From assembly GCA_963721685.1 (NCBI GenBank), contig CAVRJJ010000001.1, forward strand, positions 4,555 to 68,554: 64,000 nucleotides of DNA, in the 5' to 3' direction. The number at the start of each line of letters is the position of its first letter. Positions within the stretch are counted from its first letter, which is position 1. This DNA comes from an uncultured bacterium (lineage in GTDB: Bacteria > Patescibacteriota > Saccharimonadia > UBA4664 > SCTI01). Positions 4,168 to 46,482 of this stretch are shown in pieces. Made by a program: the position numbers and the translations under genes. The notes below the pieces were generated by a model. It did no database searches and was not told the DNA's origin. It saw only the letters and a list, made by a program, of their open reading frames with translations.

Positions 4168-4950
4168 TTATCTTGATAACCCAGTGTTAGCGTTGATCTC
4201 AAAATAGTTTGCAAGGTTTGTATTTTCATACTGCTTTAAAGTAGAAATTGTCTCGATTATTTTTTTAGCTTGGGTGTTCCTGGGGTCGGTAATACTGTAA
4301 TTGCTTGCTGCCAAACTGGTTTGAAGTACCAGCAATGTGCCGGGTTTAACTACCCCAAAGTATATGGAGTATGAGTACGCATCGCCATTGGCTGAATTTT
4401 GATTTGTATAAATTATTGCTCCATCTTCAGTTTTAGCAATGGGTACGCACTCAAAATTATTTTGTGTTCCTCGCTCTTTTTCAAAAAACCACTCGAACTC
4501 ACACATATTGCGGGTAGGGTCAAACCGCGTCTTGTACGCCAGGCTGTCTTTAAAACCTCTGAATTTTGTTTGTATAGGGGTAGTATCAAGCGTAACTTCG
4601 TAAGCATCAGACTTATATAAAACGCCCCTCAGCACCGGCTTTCCTTCTGGAGTATTTTTTTCAATGTAGTTTAGTCCGGTGGTGTACACGGGTGGGATAG
4701 TTTTAATAAGCTCCGCGTTCGCCTGGGCATTAAGCTTATTGTTTATCCGAGTTTTCGTTATTTCACTTACGGAAAAAATAATAGCTGCCATTAACATGAA
4801 CGACAGACCAAACCCACCTATTACTTTGAATAAAAGTTTATTTTTCTTGAAGCCAGCAATAAGCAGAAAAACGAAGAGTGCGAAGGGCGCGACTATGAAA
4901 AGGAGTATTCCTAATAAAATTGCTTCTCCGAGTCCGTCGCTACTGTACAT
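4168..4950 (-). CDS. membrane-anchored hypothetical protein
   Basis: 260 aa; two N-terminal TM helices then a soluble domain. Confidence 0.4.
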   Translation of the reverse strand: MYSSDGLGEAILLGILLFIVAPFALFVFLLIAGFKKNKLLFKVIGGFGLSFMLMAAIIFSVSEITKTRINNKLNAQANAELIKTIPPVYTTGLNYIEKNTPEGKPVLRGVLYKSDAYEVTLDTTPIQTKFRGFKDSLAYKTRFDPTRNMCEFEWFFEKERGTQNNFECVPIAKTEDGAIIYTNQNSANGDAYSYSIYFGVVKPGTLLVLQTSLAASNYSITDPRNTQAKKIIETISTLKQYENTNLANYFEINANTGLSR

Positions 4951-11366: not shown

Positions 11367-12638
11367 CTACTCAAAATAGCGGATTGTTCCAAAGGGGATC
11401 TTGTCTTTCATCGGGTTTTTAGAAAGGGCTACCGAGGCTGGCTGGACTACCAATTCGCCATAGCGGTCGTTAATGGCATTAATGGCATCTTCCAAATGTT
11501 CGCGCTGGACCTGGGTATCGCCGAAGAGGGTAGGTTGGTGGTTGCCGCGGTAAGGCTCCAGACCGTAGCTGCTCATATCAAAGCCATTAACCACCAGCCC
11601 CTGCGGGCCGGAGAGAAACAGCTCCATAGCGCGCTGATGGAGCTGGTCACCCCGGCGGACGGCGGCGGGCCACATATTGCGTCCATGCCACCGCCGCGGA
11701 TGGTCGTAGTCGGCTTCGCTGCCGCGGGGCTGACCATAGCGGAGATAGAGGCTTAAGCCCCGGGCGGCCAAATTATTGCGTTTTAAGCGGCGGCTGATTT
11801 TTACCGCCGCCTTGTGAAAGAGTAGCGAGAGCTCTTCTACCTCATCGGTGCGGTGCTCCAAAACGTAGTTGCGCCCCACGCTGCGGATACCGTATTGACG
11901 CTCGGTTTCATACCCACGCAGCTTTAAGTACCAGTGATGGCCGTTGATGCCGCCAAACACCTGGCGAAACAGTACCCAGTAGGGTGCGCGGTAGAAATCC
12001 ACCGAGCTATAAATACCCGCTTGGTTTAGCCGCCGCTCCATCCGCCGTTTAATATAGGGCAGTTTAACCAGCGGCAGCATGCTAAATAAGGCTTCTTGCT
12101 CGCCGGGGTTGATGGTGAGCAAGCCGTCGGGCTTATGGAACTCGGCGGCTACCTTGGCTAGCCAGCGGTTTTGGGCAATGCCAATATTCACCGTCATGTA
12201 ATCGCCGACATCTTCCTTAATCCGCTGCTTAATCTCCCGAGCAATATCTTCCAGACTGCGTCCTTTTAAAATAGAGTCCATGCCCGCAAAATCAATAACG
12301 CCCTCATCGACACTTTTCATGTAGGCGGCGGGGGAGTAGCTGGCAAAAATAGCCTTCATTTTATGGTGCACGTGGGTGTACTTGTCGGGGTCGCTTTCCA
12401 GCATAGTGAAATCAGGAACAATCGCGCGAGCCTCGTGCCAGCGGGTGCCAATCCCAATGCCCGCTACTTTGGCTTCATGCGAGGCGGTGATGCAAATAGC
12501 GTAATCGTTTAAACGGTTAGTAACGCCTACCGGCCGGCCGCGTAACAAGGGATTGGCCTGCTGCTCAGTCATCGCAAAAGCGCTGTTGAGGTCGATGTGC
12601 ATAATTTTGGGGGCGACGGGGTTGGGTTCAATGGTCAT
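11367..12638 (-). CDS. dinB: Y-family DNA polymerase (DinB/Pol IV-like)
   Basis: 'MHIDLNSAFA' (=HVDMDCFFA), 'SVDEGVIDF' (=SLDEAYLDV catalytic DE), 'WLAKVAAEFHKPDGLLTI' (=FLAKIASDMNKPNGQFVI) align with E. coli DinB. Confidence 0.65.
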   Translation of the reverse strand: MTIEPNPVAPKIMHIDLNSAFAMTEQQANPLLRGRPVGVTNRLNDYAICITASHEAKVAGIGIGTRWHEARAIVPDFTMLESDPDKYTHVHHKMKAIFASYSPAAYMKSVDEGVIDFAGMDSILKGRSLEDIAREIKQRIKEDVGDYMTVNIGIAQNRWLAKVAAEFHKPDGLLTINPGEQEALFSMLPLVKLPYIKRRMERRLNQAGIYSSVDFYRAPYWVLFRQVFGGINGHHWYLKLRGYETERQYGIRSVGRNYVLEHRTDEVEELSLLFHKAAVKISRRLKRNNLAARGLSLYLRYGQPRGSEADYDHPRRWHGRNMWPAAVRRGDQLHQRAMELFLSGPQGLVVNGFDMSSYGLEPYRGNHQPTLFGDTQVQREHLEDAINAINDRYGELVVQPASVALSKNPMKDKIPFGTIRYFE

Positions 12639-43397: not shown

Positions 43398-43712
43398 ATG
43401 AACCAGTGGAAGCCGGCTGAATCACCCGCTCCCCAGAGCATAGTTGCACCCCAACCAGAGCCTTGGGTTCAAAATTTCACCCAGCCAAAAAACCAACTTT
43501 CTTCCCCTCAGCTGCCAGTCCATCGGATGAATAAGGCCCCCGCGGCCGCGTCCCCAGCCCCCGTCGCTGCTCCCGGCCAATTAAAGCCCAGTCCGGCCGC
43601 AAGCCCAGCCGAGATGAAAAAAAATCTTAAGAACGGAACAAATAATAGTGGGCCCCATCCAGCAATTCTGCACACGCCGGAAAAATTTAAAATCAATGTT
43701 TACATCCGATAA
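43398..43712 (+). CDS. Pro/Ala-rich low-complexity hypothetical protein (doubtful)
   Basis: 104-aa ORF; locally GC-rich low-complexity composition could be non-coding. Confidence 0.15.
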   Translation: MNQWKPAESPAPQSIVAPQPEPWVQNFTQPKNQLSSPQLPVHRMNKAPAAASPAPVAAPGQLKPSPAASPAEMKKNLKNGTNNSGPHPAILHTPEKFKINVYIR

Positions 43713-44035: not shown

Positions 44036-45000
44036 CTGAAATGACCGACATATATGACATTGTAGTTGTGGGCGCCGGGCCCACCGGCTTAGCGGCTGCA
44101 CTATATACCTCGCGAGAGGACCTCAAGACCTTGGTTATTGACGGTGGTGCGGTTGGGGGCATGATTGCTACTACCGAAGTGGTGGACAACTACCCAGGTT
44201 TTCCGGAAGGAATCGGGGGGCTTGCCTTAGCCGAAGCTATGAAGAAGCAAGCTGAACGCTTTGGTTCGGAGGTGAAGACCGGCATTTGGGCGAAGAGCCT
44301 TAAGAAAACCCCGGAACATATTGAACTTGAAACCGACAAAGGCACTCTTAAGGCTCGCAGCGTACTGATAGCGACCGGGTCGCTCTACCGCCATTTGGAA
44401 GTTCCAGGGGAGAAAGAGCTGGAAGGTAAGGGCGTGCATTACTGCGCTACTTGTGACGGGCCTTTATACCGCGACGCCCACTTAATCGCGGTTGGCGGCG
44501 GTAATACCATGCTACAGGAAGGCTTATTCCTGACGAAGTTTGTGAAGAAGCTGACCGTCTTGGTAAGAAAACCGGAATTTAAAGGATCGGAAATCCTGAT
44601 CCAGAAGTTGCAGAGCCATGACAACGTGGAGGTGGTGTTTAATACCAGTGTTAGTGAAATTGTAGGCGCCGGACCGATGTTTACCTCAGTCAAGACCGTC
44701 AACAATCAAACCAAAGAAACCGGCGAGATAAATGGCGACGGGTTGTTTGTGTTTGCCGGCTTACTCCCCAATACCGACTGGCTAAAAGGGGAAATTGAAC
44801 TTGATGACCGCGGCTTCGTGCACGTTGACCACGGGTTTTCCACCAATGTGCCCGGAGTTTACGCCGCGGGCGATGTGATTGTCGGTTCGGTAGGCCAGGT
44901 GGCTTCAGCGGTCGGTGAGGGCGTGTCGGCCGCGCTTTCCATCCGGCAATACCTAGACCCCAACCACGCGCTGCCAAGCTACGCCGTGAACCAAGCCTAG
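44032..45000 (+). CDS. trxB: thioredoxin-disulfide reductase
   Basis: 'DIVVVGAGPTGLAAALY', redox-active 'CATCDG', 'VYAAGDV'. Confidence 0.9.
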   Translation: MTEMTDIYDIVVVGAGPTGLAAALYTSREDLKTLVIDGGAVGGMIATTEVVDNYPGFPEGIGGLALAEAMKKQAERFGSEVKTGIWAKSLKKTPEHIELETDKGTLKARSVLIATGSLYRHLEVPGEKELEGKGVHYCATCDGPLYRDAHLIAVGGGNTMLQEGLFLTKFVKKLTVLVRKPEFKGSEILIQKLQSHDNVEVVFNTSVSEIVGAGPMFTSVKTVNNQTKETGEINGDGLFVFAGLLPNTDWLKGEIELDDRGFVHVDHGFSTNVPGVYAAGDVIVGSVGQVASAVGEGVSAALSIRQYLDPNHALPSYAVNQA

Positions 45001-45169
45001 GCAAACTTCCAATAAGTATCCCCACATTTTCGTTGACATGCATACATAAGCGTTGTAATTTAGGAATTATGAAGTTTCAGTCTAACAACAGCCCGAAGAT
45101 TTGCCGCTGGTTTCCGGTAGTCCTGCTGTTTGGTAGGTACTGAGGCTCGTTGTATTTTCACAAAAGTGC

Positions 45170-45199
45170 GGCCGGCCTCGAAAGAGGCCGGTTTTTGTT
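45170..45199 (+). terminator. rho-independent terminator
   Basis: stem CCGGCCTC-GAAA-GAGGCCGG followed by TTTTTGTT. Confidence 0.6.
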
Positions 45200-45365
45200 A
45201 CGGGGTATAGCTTAAAAATCCTTCGCCTCCAAGTGTCTCATGAGACTTGGGTGCAAGGGGCGGATAAAGCGCCAGCCAGGGGGGCTGGAGATGTTAATTG
45301 GGTTCAAGTCCCCATATCCCGACCTGCACCATCACACACCACAACGCCCGAGGAGGGATGTAGCA

Positions 45366-45790
45366 TGTCAACAGCCCAGAGAGCAGTGCCAAAGGGCCGG
45401 CGTGCCCGGAATGAAGTGCTGATGAACACCCTCGCGGTGATCATCCGTCCTACGCAAGATCTCACAAGTGAGGCAGCCGACAAGATCGCTGACCTCCTTC
45501 CGCTCGGACTCTCGTCGGGAGCTCGCGAGCGTTTGCTCAACACCGGTACGGAAGCTCGTCGGGTGGAGCTCAGCCAGCGCACGACCGAAGTCCGGATCGA
45601 GCCGGAGAAGAGGAGGGTTCTCGAGATGATGGGCGTCAAGTTCGGCTTCCAGGTCGATGACCGGCCCGGCTTCGACCCCGCCGAAGAGCGGACGATGCGT
45701 AAGCGGATCGCCGATCGCTCCGCCGCGAAGGCCGAGTACTACCGCGACCGACGGCGCCACCGAGGGGGCAGCCACAGCTTCGCCTGGTAG
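45366..45790 (+). CDS. Arg-rich hypothetical protein on a high-GC island (putative horizontally acquired)
   Basis: 141 aa; GGAGG RBS 7 nt upstream; strong GC3 codon bias (ggc/gtc/ttc/gac/ccc/gcc) unlike neighbouring genes. Confidence 0.4.
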
Positions 45791-45954
45791 GCAGTGGTGG
45801 GTGTGAATATCTAGCTTGGGGCTACCCGCTTCACGCTAGGTAGGCGTCCCGCGCGTTGGTCCCACAAGGATCTTCGCCGGGACGCTGCCCACGTCTTTAT
45901 ATGCTTCGTTTTATAGTCTGCTATACTGAAAATCAACACTAATAAGGAAGCAGC

Positions 45955-46482
45955 ATGGCAGAATTAGGTGTCGGCAGCGACGCTCCCAATGTAGTTAATT
46001 TGGTCATTGAAATCCGTCGCGGCGAGGGTAAAAACAAGTATGAGCTGAATAAAGACACCGGCTATATGACGCTCGATCGGGTAAACGCTACCATGCTGAA
46101 GTATCCCTGCGACTACGGCTATGTGCCGGGCACCCTGTGCGATGACGGCGATCCACTGGATGGGCTGCTGGTTATCGATGAGTCGGTTCCGGCTAACGTG
46201 GTCGTTCCCGTCCGAGCGATTGGTGTCCTTTATATGGTTGATGATGGCGAAGGAGACGAAAAACTGGTTTGCGTAGCGGATGATGATGTTACCATGAAGC
46301 ACATCAATGAGATCGAAGACCTTGGCACCCATTTTAAGCCGATGGTGGAGCACTTCTACAGCCACTACAAAGATTGGAAAAACGATTGGAAGGGCGTTGA
46401 TGTGCACTTTAACGGCTGGGGCAATGCCGAAGCTGCGCGTAAGGTTATATCAGAAGCAATGGGTCGGTATTCTAGCAAGTAG
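45955..46482 (+). CDS. ppa: inorganic pyrophosphatase (family I)
   Basis: 'YPCDYGYVPGTLCDDGDPLDGLLV' signature. Confidence 0.9.
   Translation: MAELGVGSDAPNVVNLVIEIRRGEGKNKYELNKDTGYMTLDRVNATMLKYPCDYGYVPGTLCDDGDPLDGLLVIDESVPANVVVPVRAIGVLYMVDDGEGDEKLVCVADDDVTMKHINEIEDLGTHFKPMVEHFYSHYKDWKNDWKGVDVHFNGWGNAEAARKVISEAMGRYSSK

Follow-up and report, generated by a model that had tools for sequence, protein, structure and literature searches.

A GC-rich block between trxB and ppa of a Saccharibacterium is probably part of a clade-specific transcription unit with an attenuator, a tRNA-derived RNA and an orphan gene

The trxB-ppa interval of the DNA analysed here (the window, a single stretch of 64,000 nucleotides) contains a GC-rich block at 45200-45900, which an initial annotation had put forward as a candidate gene transfer from an actinobacterial host to a Saccharibacteria-like symbiont. 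Read along the forward strand, the interval carries a promoter-like site, a leader short open reading frame (sORF), an intrinsic terminator, a transfer RNA (tRNA)-derived cloverleaf, a CA-rich 5′ leader, an open reading frame (ORF) for a 141-aa protein (ORF141) and a structured 3′ end, all of them on this strand. The flanking proteins are a glutaredoxin (Grx), TrxB and an inorganic pyrophosphatase (Ppa). The Ppa relatives bear out the suspected identity of the organism as a Saccharibacterium, as the best matches among 185,579 species genomes were all Saccharibacteria, with identities of at most 75%. The gene order grx-trxB-[spacer]-ppa-gap-rpiB is kept across Saccharibacteria, with trxB-ppa spacers that range from 72 bp to ∼2.8 kb and are unrelated in content.

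Two routes led to closer relatives, L081 (=L082), L083, L084, L085, L086 and L167: clusters of proteins in which Ppa has 90% identity or more, and homologues of the ORF. A module consisting of the promoter, sORF, terminator and tRNA-like element was found in 11 instances at nine loci, and the comparisons of promoter, sORF and attenuator given below cover 10 modules. The leader and tRNA-like element are followed by a gene of the ORF141 family (family A) in the window, L086, L085 and L001, and by a gene of a second family (family B) in L083, L081, L002 and L167. L084 combines the two families in a pair of complete tandem modules (A followed by B), each of which has a leader of its own, and in L018 and L100 the leader and tRNA-like element are present with no ORF. 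The family A and B cassettes always occupy the same trxB-ppa site inside the same module, and the cargo varies between strains whose Ppa proteins are at least 90% identical. Comparison of the trxB-ppa junction across relatives, as the initial annotation had proposed, thus found the ORF missing from the more distant clade members L018 and L100, and it was therefore gained within a subclade. Since these two loci keep the leader and the tRNA-like RNA without a protein gene, the RNA is suggested to be the older, core product of the locus. After their tRNA-like elements, both L018 (3793-4000) and L100 (1478-1687) have a conserved non-coding stretch of ∼130 nt (CGGGGTAGGCGGCCGAAGA.CCGG.ACCCG...) followed by a long perfect hairpin (GAGTCTCTTGGGG...CCCCAAGAGACTC), which may be another RNA. 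The contig of L081/L082 (GCA_035509735.1, DATKIR010000507.1) is labelled ‘Candidatus Polarisedimenticolaceae bacterium’ at NCBI; its gene order is that of Saccharibacteria, its Ppa shares at least 90% identity with that of the window, and the contig is probably mis-binned.

The block is real as a compositional outlier, in agreement with the initial annotation, since sliding-window GC, tetranucleotide and codon usage analyses each rank 45200-45900 as the strongest in the 64 kb. The 500-bp GC maximum, 0.638 at 45301-45900, is the top value of ∼1270 windows (mean 0.493, standard deviation 0.041), and the tetranucleotide deviation is largest for the 700-bp window starting at 45201 (0.581 versus 0.363 ± 0.039). 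Among the 45 genes of the window, ORF141 has the most deviant codon usage (B = 0.562), a value matched by none of 1000 size-matched segments from other genes (maximum 0.539). GC at its first, second and third codon positions (GC1, GC2 and GC3) is 0.66, 0.50 and 0.77, the GC3 standing apart from the 0.54-0.61 of the neighbours trxB, ppa and gap, as had been noticed earlier. The block was also described as sharply bounded. This applies to its right edge, which is abrupt at ∼45890-45900 (100-bp GC of 0.60 at 45801-45900 and 0.47 at 45851-45950), and not to its left edge, where GC climbs gradually from 0.48 to 0.60 across 45150-45350, a ramp that spans the tRNA-like element.

The promoter-like site (45033-45061) consists of a −35 TTGACA at 45033-45038, a 17-nt spacer and a −10-like TAATTT at 45056-45061. 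It was not called by a generic sigma-70 scan, the −10 being weak. TTGACA is invariant in all 10 modules and its distance to the sORF ATG is fixed at 35-36 nt in each of them, so transcription is predicted to start at or next to that ATG. The sORF, which occupies 45069-45143 in the window (24 codons plus TGA; MKFQSNNSPKICRWFPVVLLFGRY), is thus probably leaderless, as judged from this spacing. An sORF of 24-27 codons is found at the same place in 10/10 modules; its length is kept, synonymous changes occur and the end is always CTGAGG. No NCBIfam match was obtained for it, and a search for the leader DNA pattern in JGI metagenomes and IMG/VR found nothing.

In every one of the 10 modules the sORF is followed by an intrinsic terminator, the arrangement expected of a leader-peptide attenuator. 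In the window the terminator lies at 45170-45198 and comprises a 10-bp GC stem, a GAAA loop and a T run; it is kept in all modules with compensatory changes. The initial annotation had the block begin directly after the trxB terminator. A terminator is indeed present there (45170-45193 plus the T run), and to call it simply that of trxB is incorrect, since it ends a small leader ORF with its own promoter. Codons 2-4 of the sORF (45073-45080) can pair with the stop-codon region CUGAGGCU (45140-45147) in a long-range helix spanning 45073-45147, and both this sORF-enclosing helix and the terminator appear in the RNAalifold consensus of the 10 modules. Alternatively, a predicted anti-terminator (45141-45180) joins the stop-codon region to the 5′ strand of the terminator. 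When the 3′ strand of the terminator is withheld, this anti-terminator forms in all 10 modules with energies of −12 to −20.5 kcal/mol (−19.8 kcal/mol in the window), comparable to the −10 to −22.5 kcal/mol of the terminators. From this arrangement we infer that translation of the sORF could control read-through.

The tRNA-like element begins 3-8 bases past the T run of the terminator. In the window it is a predicted cloverleaf RNA at 45201-45322, with an 8-bp acceptor stem (C1-G72, A73), a D stem, an ‘anticodon’ arm (45272-45288) with a non-decoding loop and a T arm (45300-45312; GGGTTCAAGTCCC). The D stem encloses a 51-nt hairpin inserted in the D loop. The apex of this insertion is the 12-bp palindrome GTCTCATGAGAC at 45235-45246, and the ‘anticodon’ arm is the GC hairpin at 45272-45288. 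Both of these had been reported at the correct coordinates. They are parts of a tRNA-derived cloverleaf with compensatory changes and not marks of insertion. The homologous elements of L084, L001, L086 and L081 score 54.4, 50.7, 44.6 and 37.3 bits, respectively, with the Rfam tRNA model. The L081 element has a 52-nt D-loop insertion, and the window copy is of the same long form. RNAalifold predicts a cloverleaf for the three long forms (window, L083 and L081) with 38 pairs, nine of them changed on both sides, and a cloverleaf for the seven short forms in which 12 of 19 pairs are compensatory. Five elements share the loop motif (U/A)ACA(C/U)CA.

A functional tRNA was considered and rejected, as the anticodon loops are of 3-7 nt with A33 rather than 7 nt with U33 and a purine at 37, and no decoding is expected by the usual rules. 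ARAGORN found no tRNA gene or transfer-messenger RNA (tmRNA) in the whole 64 kb and so called none at the window element; on the elements of relatives it reported ‘2-nt anticodons’ or odd calls. An Rfam scan of the 64 kb gave no family reaching its gathering score, and at E ≤ 10 over 44950-46000 returned terminator look-alikes only. With ARAGORN also blank, tmRNA, RNase P RNA or another known structured RNA was discarded as the source of the GC island. Three of the relatives have a second tRNA-like element, of 76-140 nt, directly behind the first (L083 311-449, L081 339-463 and L086 3925-4000). These second elements have an acceptor stem of GGCGAGA/TCTCGCC or GGGCAG/CTGCCC and the loop UACACCA, and ARAGORN labels the L086 copy ‘tRNA-Val(cac)’ despite its A33 and C37.

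Between the cloverleaf and the gene lies a CA-rich 5′ leader (45323-45364; GCACCATCACACACCACAAC). It contains the GGAGG ribosome binding site recognized by the initial annotation, at 45352-45356, 8 nt ahead of the ATG. In relatives, family A and family B genes alike are preceded by a conserved motif, GCACCAT.ACA..C.AC and then GGAGG, and the CA-rich leader of the module reads GCACCATCACA..CCAC. ORF141 itself runs from 45365 to 45790; its length of 141 aa was as first given and its start is one base earlier, at 45365 instead of 45366. The product is a basic orphan protein with an isoelectric point of 10.7, and had been expected to give actinobacterial matches. None was found. ORF141 has no match in Pfam, PHROGs, NCBIfam or PADLOC, and a word-indexed search of 5.8 billion clusters returned only ORF141 itself. 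Exhaustive phmmer (HMMER) searching of 1.84 billion representatives gave four matching proteins, namely ORF141 and three others, and a five-sequence family A profile found nothing beyond the family in the 5.8 billion clusters. No phage (50,697 records) or plasmid (72,556 records) was hit by tblastn at E ≤ 1, and 80 metagenome loci with Ppa relatives likewise gave no tblastn match to either family, A or B. All of the family A relatives sit between trxB and ppa in Saccharibacteria.

ORF141 is a real protein-coding gene, as seen from its Shine–Dalgarno (SD) sequence, the order GC3 > GC1 > GC2, in-frame orthologs, the ratio of non-synonymous (dN) to synonymous (dS) divergence and a confident structural model. 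The L086 ortholog (146 aa) is 52% identical, with dN 0.45, dS ∼1.0 and dN/dS ∼0.45; identities of the flanking proteins in the same comparison are 91% for TrxB, 84% for Ppa and 62% for Grx. The AlphaFold2 model, built on a four-sequence alignment, has a mean predicted local distance difference test score (pLDDT) of 81 and a predicted template modelling score (pTM) of 0.66, and shows an alpha/beta core with a long basic C-terminal helix. A fold search of this model in PDB and BFVD gave no significant match, the best non-significant ones being ferredoxin-like domains. The charge and the basic C-terminal helix suggest binding to nucleic acid or the ribosome, and ORF141 is most likely a nucleic-acid-binding factor.

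Family B is unrelated to family A (hhalign probability 0.5%) and is likewise confined to the trxB-ppa locus. Homology of the two families was thus rejected; both models are ferredoxin-like and share a few weak Foldseek hits, none of which is significant. PADLOC gave no match for nine proteins tested, and Pfam, PHROGs and NCBIfam identified no known toxin or defence family. GC3 values are 0.54-0.89 for cassette genes and 0.39-0.61 for flanking housekeeping genes, except for the GC-rich L002 flanks at 0.68-0.70.

On the opposite strand, the codon-aligned frame (45368-45775 in the window) is open along the whole family A gene, a feature conserved in L086, L085, L084 and L001 (134-172 codons). An antisense gene was considered and set aside: the SD, the GC3 pattern and the confident model all belong to the sense strand, and the open frame is read as a by-product of GC-rich codon choice, probably of avoiding TTA, CTA and TCA codons. 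Only ORF141 and its antisense shadows are gene-sized in the trxB-ppa interval of the window. Two relatives have further small ORFs. In L083 a 61-aa ORF (894-1079, GC 0.65) overlaps the family B stop codon by 4 nt (ATGA), and in L086 a 77-aa ORF (4664-4897) of ordinary GC (0.48), with no Pfam match on record, lies between the cassette 3′ hairpin and ppa.

The structured 3′ end (45789-45896) folds into an outer stem, hairpin 1 (45808-45842) and a long GC hairpin (45843-45886), with a minimum free energy of −58.4 kcal/mol (z = −4.95). The long hairpin corresponds to the inverted repeat of the initial annotation, which exists one base away from the positions first given (arms 45844-45851 and 45878-45885). 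It is kept in seven cassettes, with six of 17 pairs changed on both sides. An integron cassette, suggested by the imperfect hairpin that ends each cassette, was rejected on the lack of an integrase gene in the interval and of an obvious attC core in the hairpin, with no formal test made. The CA-rich 5′ leader is complementary to a G/U-rich tract just past the stop codon in most cassettes, as seen for 45325-45349 with 45789-45823 in the window, for 452-477 with 1080-1111 in L083 (CCAUCACAACC / GGUUGUGAUGG, 11/11 paired) and also in L081, L084, L085 and L086. Taken singly, these complementarities are mostly not significant against composition-preserving shuffles; combined over nine they give p ∼0.002 (Fisher). 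They may reflect pairing of the messenger RNA (mRNA) ends, or else a pairing that replaces the outer stem of the 3′ structure.

We consider it probable that trxB and ppa enclose a self-contained transcription unit specific to this clade and that the GC-rich block makes up its downstream two-thirds. The components of the unit would be an attenuator, a tRNA-derived RNA that has degenerated and an orphan protein, basic and fast-evolving. By the sequence searches above, such a unit is found only in one clade of soil Saccharibacteria. Its predicted operation would be as follows. Transcription would start at the sORF AUG. With no translation, or with a ribosome at the UGA, the terminator would form and yield a short RNA of ∼130 nt. 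A ribosome held early in the sORF would instead free the stop-codon region to pair with the terminator 5′ strand, and polymerase would read through. The tRNA-like element in the read-through transcript could then be recognized by tRNA-processing enzymes, with cuts by RNase P at 45201 and by a 3′ endonuclease after A73. Known substrates of RNase P include tRNA-like structures, pre-tmRNA and some mRNAs (PMC11143913). We infer that the element could be a processing or punctuation signal; cleavage would separate the leader from an mRNA beginning with the CA-rich tract, and may release a stable tRNA mimic. ORF141 would be translated from the CA-rich leader, and its product possibly acts together with the tRNA mimic under translational stress.

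Several observations weigh against this account. All of its steps, from the start of transcription through termination and read-through to processing, are predicted. The strands of the anti-terminator are almost invariant and hence provide no covariation support, and there is no run of one amino acid and no enriched residue across the leader peptides, so that no regulatory codons name a signal. The element in the window scores 27.6 bits with the Rfam tRNA model (RF00005; E = 3.3e-4, full model 1-71), under the gathering score of 29, and contains a mismatch in its T stem. L002 and L167 retain no more than an 8-bp acceptor-like stem, showing that the full tRNA shape is not required everywhere. 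Families A and B are both without a fold or family match. The unit does not account for the raised GC3. Selection for mRNA structure was excluded as the cause of the high GC, the ORF141 mRNA being no more stably folded than its shuffled versions (z = +1.6).

The GC3 anomaly also bears on the question of transfer, for which the initial annotation had looked to Actinobacteria. That proposal is not supported, there being no homologue outside Saccharibacteria in the 1.84 billion representatives, the 5.8 billion clusters, the phages or the plasmids, and nothing in these sequences points to Actinobacteria as the source. The 52%-identical ortholog with dS ∼1 at the same locus shows that the ORF is not a recent insertion private to this genome. 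The initial annotation had coupled two things that would speak for a native sequence, equal presence in relatives and native codon usage; the ORF is present in relatives, and GC3 is raised there too. Since this raised GC3 is common to relatives at dS ∼1, the anomaly is a property of the cassette family and no mark of a recent event.

An old horizontal acquisition is the alternative that survives best, and we judge it unlikely. According to it, a GC-rich donor passed the cassette gene or genes to the ancestor of the subclade beside a tRNA or tRNA-like gene, and the high GC3 is a partly ameliorated remnant. This donor could be an actinobacterial host or one of its phages or plasmids, or else an organism not yet sampled. 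The standing of the block as the strongest outlier in the window would fit, and the GC3 spread of 0.54-0.89 among the cassette genes of all close relatives is what unequal amelioration would give. The ORF is missing in L018 and L100, which carry the leader and tRNA-like element only, and a site directly 3′ of a tRNA-derived sequence is a classical place of integration. In this last respect the locus resembles tRNA-linked genomic islands, which share a block of atypical GC at that position and strain-variable content. The atypical composition expected of a horizontally acquired island is present. However, there are no donor homologues, whether in actinobacteria, phages or plasmids or anywhere outside the trxB-ppa locus. 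The interval has no integrase, as the initial annotation had stated, no direct repeats bracketing the block and no attachment (att) repeats. The leader is a native regulatory one and the ‘tRNA’ itself is part of a repeated module. Moreover, families A and B have no detectable similarity, and yet both are GC-rich with the same native leader, 5′ untranslated motif and 3′ hairpin, and L084 has two complete modules, each with its own leader. Other possible causes of the high GC are GC-biased conversion at a recombination-prone site and exchange among strains.

A more specific form of the favoured transcription unit is speculative and, we think, rather doubtful. Here the module would produce a non-decoding tRNA mimic (acceptor/T-arm minihelix, C1-G72, A73 and an ACACCA-type loop) under attenuator control, switched on when ribosomes stall on the leaderless sORF. 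The mimic and small basic proteins, ferredoxin-like and interchangeable, would constitute a previously undescribed translation-stress or tRNA-decoy system in Saccharibacteria. Should this be the case, its function could be, for example, ribosome rescue or protection from tRNA-targeting toxins of hosts or competitors.

The same components could be read as a toxin-antitoxin or defence cassette in which the basic protein acts on tRNA or the ribosome, the tRNA mimic is a decoy or antitoxin and an arms race drives rapid turnover, an idea that we regard as improbable. The hypervariable gene content of the locus (family A, B, both or none), the conserved non-decoding loop motif of the mimic and a terminator-controlled RNA-plus-protein layout that recalls type III systems would all agree with it. 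So would the fast evolution of ORF141, at 52% identity against 84-91% for Ppa and TrxB; however, identity is likewise low (62%) for the adjacent Grx, and the rate is therefore not extreme. In addition, no PADLOC match and no nuclease or toxin fold was found, and L018 and L100 carry the RNA without the protein.

A decayed integration hot spot is very improbable. In this reading small mobile elements would have inserted and excised repeatedly, leaving the tRNA-like elements as att remnants and the ORFs as abandoned cargo. The pairs of consecutive tRNA-like elements in L083, L081 and L086 and the difference in cargo between strains with closely similar Ppa would be expected from such a history. 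However, the elements are whole cloverleaves with compensatory changes, not repeated 3′ halves, the leader attenuator was duplicated along with them, and neither direct repeats nor, at any locus, a recombinase gene in the trxB-ppa interval was found. Finally, an assembly chimera, or a spurious ORF within a GC-rich non-coding RNA, could be suspected from the abrupt boundaries and the orphan protein and is extremely improbable, given the same architecture in at least eight independent assemblies, the in-frame alignment of orthologs with their dN/dS, the confident AlphaFold2 model and an independent assembly (run ERR12037361) in which a G11S variant of ORF141 is followed by ppa at identical spacing, so that the junction is not an assembly artefact.

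The favoured unit has parallels in known systems. With attenuators of the trp, his and pheA type, the leader shares an upstream short ORF, four pairing regions, mutually exclusive anti-terminator and terminator and a stop codon inside region 2. It differs from them in lacking a regulatory codon run and in placing a tRNA-like RNA and an orphan gene, not a biosynthetic operon, under its predicted control. A leaderless sORF, which the window probably has, is shared with the mycobacterial attenuators built on leaderless short ORFs (bioRxiv 10.1101/834739).

As to the cloverleaf, its position directly upstream of a protein gene in one unit is shared with tRNA-mRNA co-transcripts of Escherichia coli, so that excision by tRNA-processing enzymes would be expected. 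Such co-transcripts, among them thrU-tyrU-glyT-thrT-tufB and secG-leuU, are processed by RNase P. The cloverleaf here, however, is no working tRNA: it has a loop of 3-7 nt, A33 and an insertion of 51 nt in the D loop, and in some relatives just the acceptor stem is left. Retention of the acceptor and T arm, loss of anticodon function and a structure conserved by covariation are features in common with the tRNA-like domain of tmRNA, YrlA Y RNAs and mascRNA. In contrast to these non-decoding mimics, the element matches only tRNA in Rfam and is embedded in an mRNA leader. Unlike tmRNA, it has no tag ORF and no G3-U70, and was not called as tmRNA by ARAGORN.

The analysis removes an attractive but unsupported case of host-to-epibiont gene transfer, and illustrates that a sharp GC island beside a terminator can be a native, lineage-specific unit. 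The locus offers a compact and computationally well-defined candidate for a leader-peptide attenuator in a bacterium of the candidate phyla radiation, a group in which very little regulation is known, as well as a family of tRNA-derived RNAs in which the cloverleaf has been retained and the anticodon lost. If the tRNA mimic functions beyond punctuation of the transcript, it would be a new kind of regulated tRNA-like RNA. The two orphan protein families keep a high GC3 inside genomes of ∼50% GC, which calls for an explanation.

Three other places in the window stand out in composition. Two genes upstream of trxB, a 104-aa Pro/Ala-rich ORF (43398-43712) coincides with a local GC peak of 0.61 (43400-43599) and strongly negative GC skew. 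The second-ranked tetranucleotide outlier is at ∼18.9-19.7 kb (18901-19700), where the greedy ORF set has a GC2 of 0.57 and may be on the wrong strand. The next-highest GC3 in the window, 0.66, belongs to a gene on the reverse strand at 11367-12638.

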